This document shows, one piece after another, positions 1-44,468 of a stretch of DNA of 64,000 nucleotides (positions are counted from its first letter, which is position 1; the number at the start of each line of letters is the position of its first letter). The stretch is from a virus. A program made the position numbers and the translations under genes. The stretch lies in the UHGV virus genome UHGV-0211740. The stretch is one strand, 5' to 3'. Under the pieces are notes generated by a model, which worked only from the letters and a program-made list of their open reading frames with translations, ran no database searches and was not told where the DNA came from.

Positions 1-1810
1 ATGTAATTGTTTTATCTGCAACAATAAGGCAACTATGCAAACGAATGGCATGGCGCGACGGAGTCGCGACATAATATAAAAGCAGTAACCATCACCCCCG
101 TGATAGTTTGTCTGCAAACTATTAATCAGATCATAGTTGCCTTGTATTTAGTTAATCATGACATAACAAGCAAGGCAACTATAGATCTGCTAATAGTTGC
201 CCTGCTTTTATATTATGTCATATATTATTAACTTGTTAATTGTTTTCATGCAAACGAATGTCATGGCTGATTATTGGTGTGTAAATGGTCTATACGTGAA
301 CAGTGAGGCATGCAATAGTAACAGTCGTTATTGTGTCTAAAGTGTATAAGGTGTCAGACAAGTTTTTCTCCTCTTTGTCAAGTGCTGCATGAAAAATTTA
401 CAATCTGGTATGGTAGCATTTTTGCGGCCCTGTTTACATTCAGTAATGTATGTATAATCCTTGTTGTGTGGGCGTTTAGACGTCTAAATGGCTAGATGGC
501 TGCAGGTTAATATCTAATCTATTGGCTGCTAACTATATCCCCCACAAATAGTAAGAAATGCAATTGTTATATGCGTAAACAGTGTCACATGTTATCAATC
601 CTTGTATGTATCGCCAGTGGTGCGCATAATGGGTATTATGTTAAATTGCCAGTAGTGATAACAGTTCTCACAATGATAGGTATTCTCATTCACCCCCCAC
701 AAGATAGGTTGCAAATGTTGTGCCACTGTGTGAACGGCCTCACCTATTAATTTGCCTCACTGCCATGATATTTGAGAATCGTTATAAGAATGAGAAGTAT
801 TCCCATTCCGTCCGCCTGGCAGCACTCCTGTAGGACAAGCACAAAATCGTGGCATAACTGGACCCCCTTGGGATATTTCTGGCTGACTCTTCAGACTTGT
901 GTGGTAAAAGCCAACCCCCTCCGGCGGGGCAGGTGGTGTCTGCTGGAAAATTGCAGGTCAATTAAAAAATTTACGTGGTGTATGAAGCGCTCTTCAGGCA
1001 AGGAGTGTGTTATGGGATGAAACCCTCTTCAGGTGATGATATTTGTGGGTGTGATATTTGCTGGAAAGCCAGATATGACGGGACTCCCGGCGGGGGCAGG
1101 GGTAGTACAGGCAGGGAAAATGTGAGGATGTGGTGGGGTAATTTGATCAGACATGTAGAATATAGGATATGTTACAGGTATGTTAAATATGGAGGTTGAA
1201 TATCTGCAGGATTTGTGTGTAAAATCAAAGACTTAAGTGGTGTTGTGGTATTTTCTATAAATAATTCAGGTTTAATAGGTAATATTTGTCTCTATCCACT
1301 TTGTGTGGTAAACAGATTTAGATGAAATTGGTTTACAAGTGTATACATAATATACAAATTAAAGATACAAGAAACCCCCCTCCCCCTTCGGCTACCATTC
1401 ACCTTTTCCTCTGACTGGTACTTAAACACTTATTCAGACTCTTCAGGTTATCACCCATATACTATATGGCAGTGACTGGTGTCCTCCGGCCCCTCTTTCG
1501 TCACCCGTCCGCTTCGCCAAGCTAATGCCATAGCCAAAGGTTCGGTTGTTCACCCTGTTCACTCAGGTGTATCTCCATACCCCTTCAAACCGAAGAGAAC
1601 AGAAAACCCGAATTACTCGGTAAAAGAAAAGAGAAGAACTTAATTTTATCAGGATGGGCAAGAATGTCAAGGGATGACTGCTCACTAAACAAGCAAACAG
1701 TCATGTGTGGGAGGTAAGTGATTGTGGTGGTGGGAAATTTAGTTGGTGGGTATTATAGGTGCTTCCGGTACCTTATCTGAACAGTTAAACCTGCAAAGCA
1801 GGATTGTGTG

Positions 1811-2161: not shown

Positions 2162-2534
2162 CTCTGAACCCTTCGTGATCAGGCATAACAGAGAACCGGA
2201 TATCTACGATGCCTTCCCACGTTAGGCCATCAGCCTCAGGATCACCCTGGGATTGCAGTAGGGTGGCTTCAGATATGCGTGTGTTGGTCATGCTCCGCCC
2301 GTGAGTATTCCGGCAACAGCCATTATGGACGTAATGATCATCAGGATCACCACTAAAACATCGGACAATGTTTTCATTGTGCACTCCATATTCTCCAGAC
2401 TATGTGTGGATACTATCACGGGAGGAGGAATGTGTCAACAGGAACGTCGCGAGGGTTTGGTTAAAATCCGAGCGTATGGTGATTTGGGTCAAAACGGACG
2501 TGCGTTCTCGCTACGCTCGAAATAAAAAGTATAC

Positions 2535-3565: not shown

Positions 3566-3596
3566 AGTAAAAAAGAGGGGCCCAAGCCCCCCTCTT
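3566..3596 (-). terminator. putative rho-independent terminator
   Basis: GC hairpin AGAGGGG..CCCCTCT followed on the minus strand by a T-run; sits between two minus-strand genes. Confidence 0.4.
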
Positions 3597-3601
3597 TGTC
3601 A

Positions 3602-5999: not shown

Positions 6000-6395
6000 T
6001 TACTGAAACAGTGCAGATAAATTACCCTCTGGTGGGAACTTATCTGCCAAGAACGGTGTTAGAACAGTGGCCTTCTGAATATCTGGGGTCCACTCGTTGT
6101 TCAGAACATCCCAGTAGTACGCAATGTTGCTGTGTGGGTGCCGCATTACGAACTTTTTCCCCTCGTAGTCAGTTGAAACCTCTACAGAAGAAATAACAAC
6201 AGAATCTTCAAGGGTTTCTTCGTAGAAAGATCCTCCCTCAAATTTCCAACGAGATGCAAGAGATCCTGCCTTAAACGCTGCAGATAGTGGACTGTCGGCA
6301 AGAACATACATTTCTTGCACTCTGTCACTGCGATCTTTGCTTCTTACGTTGTATACAGTATCTGAGCTATACTCAACACGGTATAGACTTACCAT
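6000..6395 (-). CDS. hypothetical protein
   Basis: 131-aa ORF. Confidence 0.45.
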   Translation of the reverse strand: MVSLYRVEYSSDTVYNVRSKDRSDRVQEMYVLADSPLSAAFKAGSLASRWKFEGGSFYEETLEDSVVISSVEVSTDYEGKKFVMRHPHSNIAYYWDVLNNEWTPDIQKATVLTPFLADKFPPEGNLSALFQ

Positions 6396-6754
6396 TACCG
6401 CACCTCCTCGATAACTTCCACATCTGAGCCTACCACAAATGCAAAAGGGCAGGTTTCCTTAAAGATATCCGGATCACCGCCAAGTTTGCTAACTATCTCT
6501 CCACCATTAATAAATACAAGCTCACCGATATTCATCAGATTGCTGAAATAGTATCCATAATGGTTAAAGAATGCGGCGGGGTCAGGAAGACTGGTAGCCT
6601 CAAGCTCTACATCAGTTGAGGTTACTTTCTTATCATAACCTCTCGCCTTTTGAGATGCAAGATCTGCAGAATCTTCAGGAGACCGGAGATGTATAGGAAT
6701 TGTTTCACCAATAAAACGTACTTTCATATTCTCACCCAACAACCATAGCTTCAA
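6395..6754 (-). CDS. hypothetical small protein (paralog family A)
   Basis: 119-aa ORF; internal MKVRFIGE start and C-terminal GSDVEVIEE motif. Confidence 0.45.
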   Translation of the reverse strand: MKLWLLGENMKVRFIGETIPIHLRSPEDSADLASQKARGYDKKVTSTDVELEATSLPDPAAFFNHYGYYFSNLMNIGELVFINGGEIVSKLGGDPDIFKETCPFAFVVGSDVEVIEEVR

Positions 6755-7052
6755 AAGGTGTCATAAACGAATAAACGGCATCATCATCTGCTTCAGGGAA
6801 TGCTCCCAAAGACTTTATATCTGAGCCTTTGACAAACACAAGGTTCTGATCAAAAGCCTCTTGAGGATCAATCCGATACATATCTCGTAGGGTATCGCTT
6901 ACCTCCTCATCAAGAGGTGAGTATGCTGTGCACGTTTTTCCGATCAAGCTTTGAGAATCGGGGTATCCCCCTGAAGTTTTAAAATAGACAATCATATGGT
7001 ATAACCTCTGGTAAGGGATGGGGACTCCTTTCCCACAAATAATTACAAACAT
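6732..7052 (-). CDS. hypothetical protein
   Basis: 106-aa ORF. Confidence 0.4.
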   Translation of the reverse strand: MFVIICGKGVPIPYQRLYHMIVYFKTSGGYPDSQSLIGKTCTAYSPLDEEVSDTLRDMYRIDPQEAFDQNLVFVKGSDIKSLGAFPEADDDAVYSFMTPFEAMVVG

Positions 7053-7086: not shown

Positions 7087-7356
7087 TTACTCTTCTACAA
7101 CCTCATACACATCCGGAGTTACAATCAGCTCTTCTCCGTTACCCGGCGCAACAAACACCACCAAACCTTCAGGAGTGTGCTTTTTAGCCATCTCGATAAC
7201 ATCTTCTCGTAAAGCTGGCTCCATCAGATCAAAACCCTCACCTAGGGCATCACGAACAACCTTCATGTAGTCCACTGGTTGTGCTTCAACGATCATGCCT
7301 TCAACCAGTCCACAGTTTTTGTCTGCCAGCTCAGTTTGGAATAATTTAATTTTCAT
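7087..7356 (-). CDS. hypothetical small protein (paralog family B)
   Basis: 89-aa ORF; MKIKLF start, C-terminal YEVVEE. Confidence 0.45.
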   Translation of the reverse strand: MKIKLFQTELADKNCGLVEGMIVEAQPVDYMKVVRDALGEGFDLMEPALREDVIEMAKKHTPEGLVVFVAPGNGEELIVTPDVYEVVEE

Positions 7357-7493
7357 TTAGAGGTCTCCTCAATTATTTGATATTAATAGCCGTAACCTAA
7401 CACATTAACTACAACTGCGATTGCAAACATAATTTCAAAGCATGCAATCTCTACACTTGGAACTAATTTCTTAATCACACCCATTGTAGCACC

Positions 7494-7811
7494 TCATTCT
7501 CCAAAGTCAATCTTTACTTTGCCTTTCCCCTTACCTTTCTTTCCACCACATTTAGCCAACTGACGTGCTGCAACATCTACCATACGATCAGTTGCCTCGT
7601 AAGCATCACTGCCTTTGGCTTTGGCAATAATCTCCTTCCCAGAAATGTCAAAGATGAATGCCCTCACTTCTTGGTGGTCATTTTCAACTTTTACACTTAC
7701 ACGTGCATGATTCACAGAAGGATGTAGACGCTCCAGTTTTGACATTTTGTGGGAAATGAAAGACACCATACCTTCAGTGATTTCTACGTTGCCAGTGATT
7801 TCAATTTGCAT
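7494..7811 (-). CDS. hpf: ribosome hibernation promoting factor (HPF/RaiA family) homolog
   Basis: 105 aa; N-terminus MQIEITGNVEITE and the overall pattern align with bacterial HPF/YfiA, including the RQLxK motif near the C-terminus. Confidence 0.75.
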   Translation of the reverse strand: MQIEITGNVEITEGMVSFISHKMSKLERLHPSVNHARVSVKVENDHQEVRAFIFDISGKEIIAKAKGSDAYEATDRMVDVAARQLAKCGGKKGKGKGKVKIDFGE

Positions 7812-7894
7812 AATGTGCTCCTTTTAAAGAAGGGGGAACCAACCCCCTCTTTGAAAACAATGATACTAAATCTGAAGCGTTGTGTCAACAGTTT

Positions 7895-8202: not shown

Positions 8203-8616
8203 TCAGTTTAGCTTTTCTTCAACAACCCCGTAGCTTGGAGCAGAGTCAAGAGCTTTCTGGCTTAAAAGTGGTGTAGCAGAATCTGCAAACGGTGTCCAAG
8301 TTTTTGTTCTGGCATTCCAGTAATGCTTCACTCTAGAATCTGGATGCACTATAACAAAAACTTTTTCACTTGTCAACACATTAATTTCTTCCACACCCTT
8401 GCTAACAATTTCCCCATCATAGCCTCCAGTCTGGTAACCTTCGTACCAGGTCCTTGCATAAGCATATCCAGCCTGCCAGCATGCAGCCTCTTTAGAGGTG
8501 GAGACTACGTAGAAATCTTTCTCAAATTCAGGGATACGCCCTTGCTTTACGCTCCAGGCTCCGCGAATTTTCATGGTGACTTTGAAAAGTTTGTTCTTCA
8601 CACTACCGCTCCACAA
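8203..8616 (-). CDS. hypothetical protein
   Basis: 137-aa ORF. Confidence 0.45.
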   Translation of the reverse strand: MWSGSVKNKLFKVTMKIRGAWSVKQGRIPEFEKDFYVVSTSKEAACWQAGYAYARTWYEGYQTGGYDGEIVSKGVEEINVLTSEKVFVIVHPDSRVKHYWNARTKTWTPFADSATPLLSQKALDSAPSYGVVEEKLN

Positions 8617-8893
8617 TCTCTGCGTCTGTTCCTACACCAAAGGCATAGTAAGACTCTTCCCCAAAGTAATACTCTGGTGCACCTGCCTTAATTAAGTCTG
8701 AGCCGTAGATAAATACCACACTGTGGGATACAGTGGATTGCAGTGTGGAGTGCAGCTGACGAATAGGATCATCCTCAGGCAACTCTTCGAAGTATACAGC
8801 AGGTACTACCTTTCCCTTCAGAAAGGATTGCCCCAAGTAGAGGTTAGAGTCAAGAATTTTAACCTTCACAGTCGTCCTCCACGATCTCAACAT
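8603..8893 (-). CDS. hypothetical small protein (paralog family A)
   Basis: KVKILDSNLYLGQ N-terminus and GSDLIKAGA..AEIVE motifs shared with 8859..9083 and 12420..12683. Confidence 0.45.
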   Translation of the reverse strand: MLRSWRTTVKVKILDSNLYLGQSFLKGKVVPAVYFEELPEDDPIRQLHSTLQSTVSHSVVFIYGSDLIKAGAPEYYFGEESYYAFGVGTDAEIVER

Positions 8894-9083
8894 CTTCCCC
8901 TAAGGCAAAGTTGTAAGTCCACTGACTGTCAAAGCATTCCTGAGATGCGCCAGCGGCAATAAGATCTGACCCTTTTATTTTTAAAAGGTCAGGGTAATCT
9001 TCATTAGGAACAGCGGTAAACACTTTTCCAACTAAAGGCTCTTGACCAATATAGAAGTTTGAATCTAAAACTTTAACTTTCAT
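8859..9083 (-). CDS. hypothetical small protein (paralog family A)
   Basis: 74-aa ORF; MKVKVLDSNFYIGQ, GSDLIAAGA, VEIVED. Confidence 0.45.
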   Translation of the reverse strand: MKVKVLDSNFYIGQEPLVGKVFTAVPNEDYPDLLKIKGSDLIAAGASQECFDSQWTYNFALGEDVEIVEDDCEG

Positions 9084-38712: not shown

Positions 38713-39669
38713 TCATTGCATATAGTCCTCGTTGTGGAAATAGTAGTCAAGTATCTCACGACGTTCCTGCTCAAGGAGGCAGTTCCACACATCCTCTGTG
38801 TAGTTGTTACGAATGAAGTTTACCATGCCATAAAACTCTTCGTCAATACGTTTAAAGATATCCTCATCCCAAATCTTCCAAGCTCTCCCTCTCATTACGG
38901 CCTTCCGTGCCAGGTAGTATGGAGATTTGATCTTCAACTGCAGGTCATAAGGGTAGTAAGGATTACGGATCATGTACCCTTCGCCCCTTGTTTCTGCAGC
39001 TAATTCTTTTGCATAGCTGAACGGAATTTCACGCACAGTGTGAGGACGTTTTGCACCAAGATACTTGGCAATACCGTCTAAAGCCGCTTCTGGTAGCATT
39101 ATTCCAGAATCATTGTATCTACAACCTATCAAATACGCACCATGATCCTCATGAACAATATGCGGGTCTGAAGGGTGACAAATTTCAAACATAAATGTCA
39201 TGTTTTCATGGCCCATAACCTTCTTGATAAGATCTAAATTGCCACATTGCTCCTGAATGGTTTCCTTTGCAAGGTTACAATATGGAGAATCAAGAGACCC
39301 AGTCGTTGAGAATAATAGTTCACCTTTATGAGAGGATACCACGCCAAGGAACCCGTTCTTTTTCTCTACAGCCGTCACAAGCTTATTGTCAGGTAGGTTG
39401 GTTGAGTTTTCTCCCAAGTTAAACACTTTTGTGAAGGGCCATGCCACAACATTCCCCTCGTTACCGACAACAATGCCTCGGCACTCCAGTAGACGCGGAG
39501 AAAAATGCCATAAATTGTTGTAGAATACTTTTCTGGCATATTTGTAGATCTTTAATCCGAGATCTGGATAATACCGACTGGTTACAAGACCTTTATCCAC
39601 TAAATCATCTGCATTAAAATACTTCATCATGCGTTCCTCATTTGTCATTTTGTTCCACAATCTTCCCAC
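38713..39669 (-). CDS. RNA ligase, Rnl1 (T4 RnlA) family
   Basis: LLECRGIVV, KVFNLGEN, motif I VEKKNGF, motif IV EGYMIR and motif V LKIKS line up with T4 Rnl1. Confidence 0.75.
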   Translation of the reverse strand: MGRLWNKMTNEERMMKYFNADDLVDKGLVTSRYYPDLGLKIYKYARKVFYNNLWHFSPRLLECRGIVVGNEGNVVAWPFTKVFNLGENSTNLPDNKLVTAVEKKNGFLGVVSSHKGELLFSTTGSLDSPYCNLAKETIQEQCGNLDLIKKVMGHENMTFMFEICHPSDPHIVHEDHGAYLIGCRYNDSGIMLPEAALDGIAKYLGAKRPHTVREIPFSYAKELAAETRGEGYMIRNPYYPYDLQLKIKSPYYLARKAVMRGRAWKIWDEDIFKRIDEEFYGMVNFIRNNYTEDVWNCLLEQERREILDYYFHNEDYMQ

Positions 39670-39748
39670 ACAAACAGTATCATGTCAACACTTGAAATGC
39701 TCAAAAGAACACGGTATACTGTCGTTAAAATTAAAACGGAGGGTCGCT

Positions 39749-40159
39749 ATGTCTAAAATGCTATATATCGTGCGTGGTCTACCAGGGTCTGGCAAATCAA
39801 CACTGGCAAATGCGTTATCTTTAGAAGGTCTGTATCCACATTTTGAGAACGACATGTTCTGGTACGACGATGATGGAAATTACAACTGGGATGCAAGTAA
39901 AGTGACACTTGCTGCAAAATGGTGCAAAGATAATATAGAAGATATGATGCGTATGGGGTACGACCGTGTCGTGGTAAGCAACACATTCACAAAAGAAAAG
40001 CATGTGCAAGAGTATATTGACATGGCGATCCGTAATGGGTATAATTACACAGTAATCGTGGTGGAGAATCGCCACGGTAACAAAAGTATCCACAATGTTC
40101 CAGAAAAGGTTGTGGATCGTATGGAACGTGAACTGAAAAACTGTATTAAACTTAAATGA
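39749..40159 (+). CDS. P-loop kinase, putative polynucleotide 5-prime kinase
   Basis: Start refined to the ATG after a GGAGGG RBS; Walker A VRGLPGSGKST like the T4 Pnk kinase domain. Confidence 0.55.
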   Translation: MSKMLYIVRGLPGSGKSTLANALSLEGLYPHFENDMFWYDDDGNYNWDASKVTLAAKWCKDNIEDMMRMGYDRVVVSNTFTKEKHVQEYIDMAIRNGYNYTVIVVENRHGNKSIHNVPEKVVDRMERELKNCIKLK

Positions 40160-40166
40160 GGATAGT

Positions 40167-40721
40167 ATGAAATATTTTATAACAAGTGACACACACTTTC
40201 TCCACCAGCGTGTTATGGAGTTCGATTCTTGTCAAAAGCACAGATCGCAGTATAACCACGATCTTGATAGCATGAATGCAGGGATCATAGACAAGTGGAA
40301 CTCAATTGTGTCACCATGGGACACTGTGTTCCACTTGGGAGACATTGCATGCACTAAGGATAAGAATATCAACAACTTACTGCCTGAAATTCTAAATATG
40401 CTGAACGGACATATTATTCTTGTTCGTGGTAACCATGACACAAGGACGACTGTCAGAATTATGAAAGAGTTCTGTCATGAGGTTGTAGATTATTACGAGC
40501 TTCGCCACAACAAGAATCTGATCTGTATGAGCCATTACCAGTTTGCAACGTGGAACAGAAAGCCCCACGGATCAGTTCAACTGTTTGGTCATGCTCACGG
40601 AACCACACAACAGTTATTTGGCAGGCAGTTGGATGTTGGTTGGGATGTATGGGGTAGACTGTTACCACTAGAAGAGGCATACAGCCTTGCAATGAGTTTT
40701 GATATTGACAGCAGGGAGTAA
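40167..40721 (+). CDS. calcineurin-like metallophosphoesterase
   Basis: Motifs SDTHF, LGDIA, RGNHD and GHAHG of the binuclear metallophosphoesterase fold. Confidence 0.7.
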   Translation: MKYFITSDTHFLHQRVMEFDSCQKHRSQYNHDLDSMNAGIIDKWNSIVSPWDTVFHLGDIACTKDKNINNLLPEILNMLNGHIILVRGNHDTRTTVRIMKEFCHEVVDYYELRHNKNLICMSHYQFATWNRKPHGSVQLFGHAHGTTQQLFGRQLDVGWDVWGRLLPLEEAYSLAMSFDIDSRE

Positions 40722-43659: not shown

Positions 43660-43734
43660 GCCCTGTTAGCTTAGTGGATAAAGCAGCGGCCTTCTAAGCC
43701 GTTGACACTGGTTCGAGTCCAGTACGGGGTGCCA
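43660..43734 (+). tRNA. tRNA-Arg (anticodon TCT)
   Basis: 7-bp acceptor stem, T-arm CTGGTTCGAGTCCAG, anticodon loop CTTCTAA, 3-prime CCA encoded. Confidence 0.75.
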
Positions 43735-43738
43735 AATC

Positions 43739-43825
43739 GGGGAGTTATACCGTAGAGGTAGCGGTGTAGACTGTAAATCTATTGTCATTGCGACTCGGGT
43801 GGTTCGACTCCATCACTCCCCACCA
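43739..43825 (+). tRNA. tRNA-Tyr (anticodon GTA)
   Basis: Acceptor GGGGAGT/ACTCCCC, anticodon loop CTGTAAA, long variable arm, T-loop GGTTCGACTCC, CCA encoded. Confidence 0.75.
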
Positions 43826-43936
43826 AAATCCCATATTTGTGATAAATAATATAGATAATGACATTGATGTTTATCGTCGTTTATACTAGTCCCTAACTGT
43901 TCGAAAATCAGTGTCATTATCAGTGTTGTTTATAAA

Positions 43937-44026
43937 AGAGAGTAGGGAGCATGGTGCTCAAGCGGTCTTGAAAACCGTCCCGTTGAGATATCCTCGATGA
44001 TGGTTCGATTCCATTACTCTCTGCCA
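43937..44026 (+). tRNA. tRNA-Ser (anticodon TGA)
   Basis: Perfect 7-bp acceptor AGAGAGT/ACTCTCT, anticodon loop CTTGAAA, long variable arm, T-loop TTCGATT, CCA encoded. Confidence 0.75.
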
Positions 44027-44124
44027 GATCGTGGATCATGAAATTAAGCGAGCGCCGGAAGCAGAACCGGATTAACAAATGTTACAGTCGTCATCGCCGA
44101 CTAGCAGCATGATCCACATAATAT

Positions 44125-44221
44125 GCTAGGTAAGCCCTTTGGCAAGGGCGAGGATTTTTAATCCTGAAAATAGACGAAGCAGTCGTTGAATACATAGGTG
44201 GTTCGATTCCATCGCCTAGCA
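44125..44221 (+). tRNA. atypical 97-nt tRNA-like gene (possible pseudo-tRNA or non-canonical tRNA)
   Basis: Perfect acceptor stem GCTAGGT/GCCTAGC and canonical T-arm GGTGGTTCGATTCCATC, but no clean 5-bp anticodon stem with 7-nt loop (closest is AGGA/TCCT with loop TTTTTAA) plus about 30 nt of extra internal sequence; no encoded CCA. Confidence 0.35.
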
Positions 44222-44228
44222 CCTTTTT

Positions 44229-44304
44229 GCTGATGTAGCACAATTGGTAGTGCAATTGATTTGTAATCAATAGGTTGCAGGTTCAAGTCCTGCCATCAGC
44301 ACCA
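44229..44304 (+). tRNA. tRNA-Thr (anticodon TGT)
   Basis: Acceptor GCTGATG/CATCAGC, anticodon stem-loop ATTGA-TTTGTAA-TCAAT, T-loop GGTTCAAGTCC, CCA encoded. Confidence 0.8.
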
Positions 44305-44305
44305 T

Positions 44306-44380
44306 GTCCCTGTAGCTGGAAGGTTCAAGCAAGCGACTCATAATCGCCAGACGGTGGTTCAATTCCACCCAGGGCCACCA
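44306..44380 (+). tRNA. tRNA-Met or Ile2 (anticodon CAT)
   Basis: Acceptor GTCCCTG/CAGGGCC with one mismatch, anticodon loop CTCATAA, T-arm GGTGGTTCAATTCCACC, CCA encoded. Confidence 0.7.
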
Positions 44381-44391
44381 AATTATAAATA

Positions 44392-44468
44392 CTCCGCGTA
44401 GCTCAGCTTGGTAGAGCGCCTGATTTGGGATCAGGAGGTCGAGTGTTCGAATCACTCCGTGGAGACCA
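44392..44468 (+). tRNA. tRNA-Pro (anticodon TGG)
   Basis: C1-G72 acceptor CTCCGCG/CGTGGAG, D-arm AGCTCAGCTTGGTAGAGC, anticodon loop TTTGGGA, T-loop GTTCGAATC, CCA encoded. Confidence 0.8.

Follow-up and report, generated by a model that had tools for sequence, protein, structure and literature searches.

Does a virulent phage carry a ribosome hibernation factor of its own, and what would such a protein do to the ribosomes of its host? The question is raised by a protein of 105 residues encoded on the minus strand of a 64,000-nucleotide stretch of viral DNA (UHGV-0211740; hereafter, the window), which a preliminary description had read as a homolog of bacterial HPF/RaiA and had linked to direct manipulation of host ribosome activity, an effect that our analysis leaves plausible. 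To our knowledge, phage genes that directly touch the ribosome are rare. This gene offers a clean natural way into the question of whether a virulent phage manipulates ribosome hibernation and, if so, how, a question relevant to phage therapy against slow-growing or stationary bacteria. The gene and the two parts of its product are the following.

7494..7811, minus strand: hpf-like coding sequence (ATG start, 105 aa plus TGA stop, from the open reading frame list and the sequence; MQIEITGNVEITEGMVSFISHKMSKLERLHPSVNHARVSVKVENDHQEVRAFIFDISGKEIIAKAKGSDAYEATDRMVDVAARQLAKCGGKKGKGKGKVKIDFGE), an orthologue of rV5 gp139 / ORF144 with 95% amino acid identity
7548..7808, minus strand: folded HPF core, residues 2-88 (AlphaFold2 pLDDT of about 78-95 per 10-residue block over residues 1-90)
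7497..7547, minus strand: Lys/Gly-rich C-terminal tail, residues 89-105 (GGKKGKGKGKVKIDFGE; pLDDT <50 over residues 90-105)

The existence of the gene is already known, because it is annotated in the rV5 reference genome (gp139; YP_002003641 and ABI79209) and in about a hundred relatives, and was reported and experimentally tested in 2019. Among these relatives, it is labelled 'ribosome hibernation factor' (in the BASEL phages), 'sigma 54 modulation factor', 'hpf', or 'RaiA'. Mizuno et al. (2019) included rV5 HPF in their list of ribosomal proteins encoded by viruses and grouped it with gammaproteobacterial HPFs (PMC6375957), and Mathieu et al. (2020) noted hpf in five rV5-type gut isolates (PMC6969025); our literature search turned up no paper later than that of Mizuno et al. 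that examines the function of a phage HPF. What is new here is the strong purifying selection on the gene, its sister lineage, the finding of no close bacterial donor, the pattern of kept and lost ribosome contacts, and a variable tail with a terminal motif. The last two, together with the weakness of the published negative result, offer points that can be tested.

Gene organization and expression signals

The 105-residue open reading frame sits exactly at 7494..7811 on the minus strand and opens with ATG. It lies, as had been described, among small minus-strand open reading frames, which form a long array and are of unknown function, in DNA whose matches to phage records confirm its phage origin. 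The genomic context gives no functional clue, because the ten neighbouring open reading frames had no Pfam match and their PHROGs matches were only to families of 'unknown function'. In some records, the label 'sigma 54 modulation factor' is placed on a neighbouring 89-aa gene, which we regard as an annotation error. The elements that surround hpf are listed below.

7818..7823, minus strand: Shine-Dalgarno sequence AAGGAG, 6 nt 5' of the hpf ATG (read from the sequence)
7826..7852, minus strand: stem-loop AAAGAGGGGG-TTGGTT-CCCCC(T)TCTTT (terminator-like match; RNAfold, -14.3 kcal/mol)
7860..7888, minus strand: sigma-70-type promoter (TTGACA, 17-nt spacer, TATCAT; 11/12 consensus matches in a consensus scan)
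7383..7484, minus strand: hydrophobic open reading frame of 33 aa (MGVIKKLVPSVEIACFEIMFAIAVVVNVLGYGY; phrog_15151, E=4e-25), annotated as rv5_gp140 / ORF145

A ribosome-binding site is annotated at the place equivalent to the Shine-Dalgarno sequence in phages Mangalyan and Murica. The promoter, which starts 7 nt past the stop codon of the upstream open reading frame, is annotated in rV5 as 'Sigma70-type promoter; P144' and is predicted by PhagePromoter in phage Gotham. Its hexamers, TTGACA and TAT[C/T]AT, are kept in all 14 of the rV5-group loci compared, and TTGACA is also present upstream of the gene in the sister lineage described below. Early expression of hpf would follow from this promoter sequence and from the position of the gene; we found no Vequintavirus transcriptome in the literature.

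The stem-loop begins 8 nt beyond the -10 hexamer, where the hpf transcript is predicted to start. An equivalent hairpin (-5 to -12.5 kcal/mol) is found in every rV5-group locus, sequence changes notwithstanding, and is absent from the sister-lineage hpf locus. The hairpin may either stabilize the 5' end of the mRNA or act as a leaky terminator or insulator against read-through from upstream. Elsewhere in the window, at 3572..3597, another hairpin of this type (AAAGAGGGG...CCCCTCTTT) is located directly 3' of a promoter-like site. At the other end of the gene, the hpf TGA stop overlaps the GAGGTG ribosome-binding site of the 33-aa open reading frame, which is probably co-transcribed with, and translationally coupled to, hpf. 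The sister lineage lacks this small open reading frame, the gap after hpf there being only 84 nt.

Family membership and predicted fold

The proposed HPF/YfiA homology was borne out by the profile searches, in which the protein exceeded the curated cutoffs of both (i) Pfam PF02482 (Ribosomal_S30AE), with 51 bits against a cutoff of 23.7 (E=2.4e-13; residues 3-88 on positions 1-83 of the 88-position profile), and (ii) TIGR00741 (HPF/YfiA), with 49.6 bits against 40.9. The best matches among PDB chains (phmmer) were E. coli HPF structures (2rql, 4v8h, and 6h4n; E of about 4e-13 to 1e-12), in which residues 1-89 aligned with residues 1-89, and the N-terminal motif that had been pointed out, MQ(L/I)xITG-N-VEITE, is indeed common to the phage protein and E. 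coli HPF. Enterobacterales HPFs are 35-43% identical to the phage protein, and its own PHROG family, phrog_12469, matched with 224 bits.

An AlphaFold2 (AF2) model built from 26 aligned sequences (mean pLDDT of 82.6) comprises β1 (residues 2-7), α1 (13-29), β2 (33-43), β3 (46-55), β4 (60-67), and α2 (70-88). In a Foldseek search of the PDB with this model, the top 36 matches were all HPF/YfiA/pY chains, the best with TM scores of 0.87-0.91, and the model superposed over 89 columns on both V. cholerae HPF (4hei_A; rmsd of 1.0 Å) and E. coli HPF from the 100S ribosome (6h4n_x; 1.1 Å). Sequence and predicted fold together thus identify the phage protein as a true member of the Ribosomal_S30AE / HPF-YfiA family, in line with the Pfam match and the structural similarity that had been anticipated. 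No second Pfam domain was found in its 105 residues, so it is not a long HPF, which carries a C-terminal dimerization domain and has about 180-230 aa.

Within the family, sequence comparison places the core with HPF rather than RaiA, because its BLASTP identity is 43% to E. coli HPF (E=2e-19) versus 23% to E. coli RaiA, and because it scored 60.3 bits with the HPF equivalog model NF007780 versus 18.6 bits with the RaiA equivalog model NF007654. Neither equivalog cutoff (125 and 158 bits, respectively) was reached. Given the low identity to RaiA and the distance from the RaiA cutoff, the product name 'RaiA' in RefSeq denotes the family and makes no statement of orthology.

Distribution, age, and selection

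When the 2.5 kb surrounding hpf was compared with phage records, 119 of them matched, with nucleotide identities of 80-95%, and almost all of these were Vequintavirus (rV5-like) coliphages. Since the best of these regional matches reached 94.8%, the window represents a distinct isolate or a species-level variant, and the gene is not of a new kind. The protein was found in 118 of these records with 91-97% identity, and every one of the roughly 118 genomes with the region has kept the gene. Three residues, R50, I56, and I61, are private to the window gene among 14 genes sampled.

A scan of IMG/VR provided only 2 loci, so we based the selection analysis on gene sequences from 10 GenBank phage records. 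Over 90 pairs of 14 rV5-group genes, the pooled dN/dS was 0.058, with dS of up to 0.7, indicating purifying selection. Beyond this group, an uncultured sister lineage, represented by contigs of 44-137 kb from metagenomes and from one E. coli assembly, carries a 103-aa copy with 65% amino acid identity. This copy was compared by amino acid identity rather than by NG86 dN/dS, synonymous sites being probably saturated at this distance. Sister-lineage hpf is syntenic, and its flanking neighbours are 58% and 47% identical to their counterparts; hpf is accordingly better conserved than its surroundings.

Relatives outside these phages are distant. Searched exhaustively with HMMER, 1.84 billion cluster representatives yielded a single cluster at E<1e-10, all other matches being ordinary HPFs with no more than 45% identity, and revealed no close bacterial donor. 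A word-indexed search of 5.8 billion proteins recovered only 5 close relatives. Two high-ranking matches of the HMMER search, P0126 (1160 aa) and P0141 (1465 aa), proved spurious, as they are repeat proteins whose 'DVDLYLYDESGNEI'-type units match a short stretch repeatedly, and P0127 is an enterobacterial HPF whose end is frameshifted, rather than a tailed relative. When E. coli HPF was searched against 50,697 phage records, homologs were found essentially only in Vequintavirus, and the few other matching records are small contigs, probably fragments of bacterial DNA. The GC content of the gene (41.8%) is close to that of the phage (43.1%).

Judged from these sequence comparisons, hpf is a hallmark of Vequintavirus that is old, has become fixed, and is maintained by selection. 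The 2019 suggestion that the gene was recently captured from the host is rejected on the basis of (i) the 43% identity to host HPF, (ii) the phage-like GC content, (iii) dS values reaching 0.7, and (iv) the syntenic sister copy. The same data make it very improbable that hpf is a functionless passenger or, as its historical name suggests, a factor for 'sigma-54 modulation'. The name 'sigma 54 modulation factor' persists in many records, and no phenotype of the gene has been reported. That name derives, though, only from the place of the bacterial gene in the rpoN operon. A dN/dS of about 0.06 at such synonymous divergence, retention in every genome carrying the region as well as in the sister lineage, and a conserved promoter and ribosome-binding site of its own all speak against a passenger, and the solved structures of the family are all ribosome complexes.

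Ribosome-contact residues

To locate the surface through which the protein would meet the ribosome, we used contact residues described in a recent cryo-EM study of HPF/YfiA (bioRxiv 10.1101/2025.10.07.680626) and in a study of the E. coli 100S ribosome (bioRxiv 10.1101/382572). In E. coli HPF, a basic track along helices 1 and 2, comprising K23, K26, position 29, K80, R83, K87, K89, and K91, contacts 16S rRNA (bioRxiv 10.1101/2025.10.07.680626). The phage protein keeps a basic residue at six of these eight positions, namely K22, K25, and R28 (equivalent to E. coli K23, K26, and Q29) on helix 1 and R83, K87, and K91 on helix 2, and it also keeps Q84. The two basic contacts that are lost are K80, replaced by Val (Thr in the sister lineage), and K89, replaced by Gly (Ser in the sister lineage). 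The eight positions hold Lys or Arg in 49-64 of 65 diverse family representatives, and the six kept ones in 51-64. Valine occupies position 80 in 8 of the 65, so that the K80V change is unusual for the family without being disqualifying.

Further contacts are not conserved, including T53 and H55 of the β-sheet, which face m2G966 and the uS9 tail (bioRxiv 10.1101/2025.10.07.680626; bioRxiv 10.1101/382572), and R33, K93, and H95, which make the E-tRNA and codon-mimic contacts; for T53 and H55, the mapping onto strand β3 is ambiguous, as it shifts by one position between alignments. These differences, like the loss of K80 and K89, count against the predicted ribosome binding. The core contact surface would hence be largely, though not fully, intact, a pattern that fits a weaker core interaction supplemented by the tail and that is also compatible with an altered function.

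The C-terminal tail

The basic Lys/Gly tail noted in the preliminary description is present: CGGKKGKGKGKVKIDFGE is the C-terminal sequence, seven of the ten residues from 91 to 100 are Lys, and the tail brings the computed pI up to 9.07, as compared with 6.5 for E. coli HPF. In the AF2 model, helix 2 stops at Cys88-Gly-Gly and gives way to a disordered tail ending in KIDFGE. The DNA encoding the tail is an (AAR GGN)n tract, which is slippage-prone; among rV5-group genomes, the length of the protein lies between 99 and 106 aa, and in two records the end is frameshifted. The tail of the sister lineage, YSKSKGIDKRTAKWDY, is without the K/G repeat, but it is still basic and ends in KWDY, so that a terminal K-[I/W]-D-[F/Y] motif is common to both groups.

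Two observations on bacterial proteins bear on where such a tail could lie. His95 of E. coli HPF stacks on G693 and thereby mimics an E-site codon (bioRxiv 10.1101/382572), and the C-terminal extension of RaiA protrudes into the RMF site, which is thought to prevent 100S formation (PMC7913689).

The published test of ribosome association

The one direct test of ribosome association is that of Mizuno et al., who expressed rV5 HPF from pBAD24 in E. coli NM522 and detected its peptides, including the C-terminal VKIDFGE, by mass spectrometry in the crude extract; none were detected in the 70S/100S fractions, and the 100S peak was unchanged (PMC6375957). The cells had been harvested at the end of exponential growth, at an OD600 of 1, and the ribosomes passed through a sucrose cushion containing 500 mM NH4Cl; as possible reasons for the result, the authors named growth phase, salt, and a genuine loss of ribosome binding (PMC6375957). 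Hibernation factors sit in the tRNA/mRNA channel of ribosomes that are not translating and build up in stationary phase; at the end-exponential stage, there is hardly any expression of RMF, and host hibernation factors are scarce in growing cells (PMC7913689).

The combination of 500 mM NH4Cl and late-exponential cells makes this a weak test of binding, and the near absence of RMF at that growth stage makes it a weak test of 100S formation. High-salt washing, moreover, strips hibernation factors from ribosomes. We therefore take the 2019 result to lower the confidence in ribosome binding, without refuting it.

A genuine loss of binding would suit a protein in which the HPF/dsRBD-like fold has been repurposed away from the ribosome, either to bind phage or host RNA or to serve as a sponge for a nucleotide signal. 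A precedent of fold exists, in that the phage sponge Acb4 structurally resembles V. cholerae HPF 4HEI (PMC11722364), and the failure to find rV5 HPF on ribosomes (PMC6375957), the scores below both equivalog cutoffs, and the isolation of the clade, with no representative from outside the phage lineage above about 45% identity, all lean the same way. The resemblance of the phage protein to HPF extends, however, beyond fold to true sequence homology along 89 residues; the rRNA-contacting residues R83, K87, K91, K22, and K25, as well as Q84, have been kept under purifying selection; and nothing in the AF2 model points to an oligomer or to a pocket for a ligand. On balance, we consider a role of this kind improbable.

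A proposed role on idle ribosomes

The reading that we favour, and hold to be moderately probable, is that the phage protein occupies the decoding channel of host ribosomes that stand idle, much as RaiA does, and would preserve and shield them in slow-growing or starving cells. Host RNA polymerase would transcribe hpf early from the sigma-70 promoter, and the product would bind, as HPF and RaiA do, in the tRNA/mRNA channel between the head and the body of vacant host 30S or 70S particles, using the kept basic residues of helix 1 (K22, K25, and R28) and helix 2 (R83, K87, and K91). From there, the lysine-rich tail would continue towards the platform and the anti-Shine-Dalgarno region, where RMF binds. 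We propose this path because His95 of HPF already reaches G693 and the phage C-terminus is 10 residues longer, flexible, and lysine-rich; the path is conjectural, the tail being disordered in the AF2 model.

In a RaiA-like manner, idle ribosomes would be parked and shielded as 70S monomers, and 100S dimers would not be promoted; the unchanged 100S peak observed with rV5 HPF (PMC6375957) fits this mode better than an HPF-like one. The benefit to the phage would be a host ribosome pool preserved during infection of slow-growing or starving cells. The shielding might, for instance, act against YbeY/RNase R, whose attack on the 16S rRNA 3' end and decoding region is one that hibernation factors are known to prevent (PMC7913689). 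Preservation of ribosomes would also be in keeping with the translation-upkeep genes of the phage, which comprise six tRNAs and a set of RNA ligase (RNA_lig_T4_1), kinase, and metallophosphoesterase. Against the proposed occupancy count the negative outcome of the only direct association test (PMC6375957) and, for the role as a whole, scores far below the HPF and RaiA equivalog cutoffs. Nor is the benefit obvious, because an early global inhibitor of ribosomes would also hit phage translation.

In a different proposal, that of Mizuno et al. (PMC6375957), the phage protein would be an anti-hibernation decoy, that is, a weak and reversible competitor of host HPF/RaiA (and, via its tail, of RMF) that prevents the ribosomes of a stationary-phase or stressed host from entering stable 100S/70S hibernation, or frees them from it, and so leaves them to phage mRNAs. 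The loss of K80, K89, and the β-sheet contacts would weaken binding as a decoy demands, rV5 HPF was absent from salt-washed ribosomes and caused no rise in 100S (PMC6375957), and a tail that reached the RMF region, as that of RaiA does, would block dimerization. Any occupant of the A/P-site channel, however, blocks the binding of tRNA and mRNA, making occupancy itself inhibitory; the lysine-rich tail and high pI argue for more RNA affinity rather than less. Host hibernation factors are furthermore scarce in growing cells (PMC7913689), and yet the sigma-70 promoter of the gene is of a constitutive type. We regard a decoy as possible but doubtful.

A further reading, which we advance as an unlikely but specific idea, is that the Vequintavirus proteins constitute a viral functional subclass of hibernation factor with an HPF-type core, in which weakened core contacts (K80V and K89G) are compensated by the flexible poly-Lys/Gly tail with its K-[I/W]-D-[F/Y] anchor, the tail threading the E-site mRNA path to the anti-Shine-Dalgarno/RMF pocket. 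If this were true, the phage would both block the formation of 100S particles by host RMF/HPF and shield the 16S 3' end and decoding centre against nucleases of the host or defence toxins directed at ribosomes, so that starved gut E. coli could be infected productively.

Comparison with known systems

The closest known system is rV5 gp139 with its Vequintavirus orthologues, which resemble the window gene in their neighbours, promoter P144, 5' hairpin, and downstream 33-aa open reading frame, and differ from it by only a few substitutions. With E. coli HPF (YhbH, 95 aa; 2rql, 4v8h, and 6h4n), the phage protein has in common 43% identity over residues 1-87 and a fold that agrees to within 1.1 Å. 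It differs from this host protein in that (i) it is, at 105 aa, 10 residues longer; (ii) it lacks one residue, at N8, a deletion that only some members of the genus share; (iii) its helix 2 breaks at Cys-Gly-Gly and is followed by a 17-residue Lys/Gly tail, whereas helix 2 of E. coli HPF runs to the C-terminus (HKDKLKQH); and (iv) its expression, in the case of rV5 HPF, had no discernible effect on 100S particles (PMC6375957), whereas E. coli HPF converts RMF-induced 90S dimers into 100S.

E. coli RaiA (YfiA / protein Y, 113 aa; 4v8i and 1n3g) shares the family and the fold, and both proteins extend past the length of HPF, RaiA by 18 residues and the phage protein by 10. The two extensions are nevertheless unrelated in sequence and charge, that of RaiA having an acidic end (EEVEEE) and that of the phage protein being poly-Lys/Gly. 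Phage-borne PF02482 proteins are also known from Cronobacter phage GAP32 (PMC6375957) and from phrog_8990; the match to phrog_8990 is weak (E=1.5e-6), however, and GAP32 HPF was reported on another branch of the HPF tree (PMC6375957). These are independent acquisitions, and phages have captured the HPF family more than once.

Gene neighborhood of hpf

Paralogous small genes, recognized through their PHROG matches, form an array that flanks hpf, the 105-aa HPF/RaiA-family gene, between positions 6000 and 9083 of the window. Two phrog families recur in it, phrog_7379 with a copy on each side of hpf and phrog_5009 with two to three copies:

6000..6395, phrog_7379
6732..7052, phrog_5009, weak match (possible third copy)
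8203..8616, phrog_7379
8603..8893, phrog_5009
8859..9083, phrog_5009

The distribution of these copies around hpf suggests that a cassette was duplicated in tandem around the hpf insertion point.

We compared this neighborhood with that of loci L002-L005, which lie on contigs of 44-137 kb (ERR6997038, ERZ16268152, ERR13959479, and GCA_012894635.1) and represent an uncultured relative of Vequintavirus; the lineage was not found in the 2025 phage collection. These loci share with rV5-type phages the order of genes on either side of hpf, and just 10-13% of a 12-kb early region is alignable by megablast, at 81-88% identity.

Downstream of hpf lies a conserved hydrophobic ORF:

7383-7484, minus strand, 33-aa ORF (phrog_15151; rv5_gp140)

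The stop codon of hpf and the ribosome-binding site of this ORF overlap, and the ORF probably encodes a small membrane peptide, the translation of which is coupled to that of hpf. This ORF is absent near hpf in the sister lineage (L002-L005).

Promoter-hairpin elements

Two hairpins in the early region share one architecture, AAAGAGGGG-loop-CCCCTCTTT with symmetric A/T flanks:

3572-3597, minus strand, hairpin
7826-7852, minus strand, hairpin preceding hpf

A promoter-like site precedes each of them, and the hairpin starts 7-8 nt past its -10 hexamer. Such an order, with the promoter followed by the hairpin, is unusual. The two elements may serve either as (i) 5'-terminal stabilizing stem-loops or as (ii) transcription insulators; no 5' hairpin of hpf occurs at the four sister-lineage loci.

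ORF-poor left end

In a genome that is otherwise tightly packed, positions 1-1800 (to about 2000) of the window contain few ORFs, the longest in 1-1800 comprising 82 aa with a TTG start. The stretch matches by position a 2.6-kb region of rV5 (104013-106618) that was termed non-coding in the rV5 paper (PMC3606486), and its nucleotide identity is about 91% across >100 genomes. The following elements were located in and near it:

68-85 / 202-219, perfect inverted repeat of 18 nt, within the ORF-poor stretch
1670..1643, minus strand, near-consensus promoter
2438..2410, minus strand, near-consensus promoter

Further, the GC skew switches sign near 2.5-3 kb, and an Rfam scan of the stretch returned no family at gathering score. 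We consider this stretch a candidate for a replication origin or for a region of non-coding RNA.

Translation-related genes

Additional genes related to translation are found elsewhere in the window:

38713..39669, minus strand, T4 Rnl1-type RNA ligase
39629..40159, plus strand, P-loop kinase
40167..40721, plus strand, metallophosphoesterase
43660-44468, plus strand, six-tRNA cluster (Arg-tct, Tyr-gta, Ser-tga, Thr-tgt, Met-cat, and Pro-tgg)

The ligase is arranged divergently from the kinase and the metallophosphoesterase, and together these genes (38713-40721) constitute a tRNA-repair-type set, which gives a second indication of upkeep of the host's translation machinery by the phage. The tRNA-Ser (43937..44026; 90 nt, ARAGORN) had no Rfam match at gathering score. 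At its position, phage DrSchubert carries an annotated 97-nt 'tRNA-Lys', and the CAT-anticodon tRNA that is called Met-cat in the window is labelled Ile (ATA) in that phage.

Public annotations and hpf codon 8

In GenBank, 18-19 MG0656xx records (A142, C12, C14, D1, and others) are named 'Campylobacter phage', with C. jejuni as host. Across the hpf region, however, their proteins are 92-96% identical to those of rV5-like coliphages and the DNA matches as well; judged from these sequences, the records are probably mislabelled or contaminant assemblies. Moreover, MT884008-11 and the OR0625xx records list hpf as 'ATP-dependent protease La type I', and 'sigma 54 modulation factor' is assigned in APCEc02 and several MN850xxx records to an unrelated 89-aa neighbor of hpf (7087..7356), for which a Pfam search gave no match. 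Both labels are annotation errors.

Codon 8 of hpf is subject to a one-codon indel polymorphism across genomes (loci L011, L014, and L016). In some bacterial HPFs, position 8 (His8) contacts the ribosome (bioRxiv 10.1101/2025.10.07.680626). Phages V18, nomo, and Murica encode GNNVEITE, as does E. coli HPF, whereas hpf in the window, like that of most other genomes, encodes GNVEITE.
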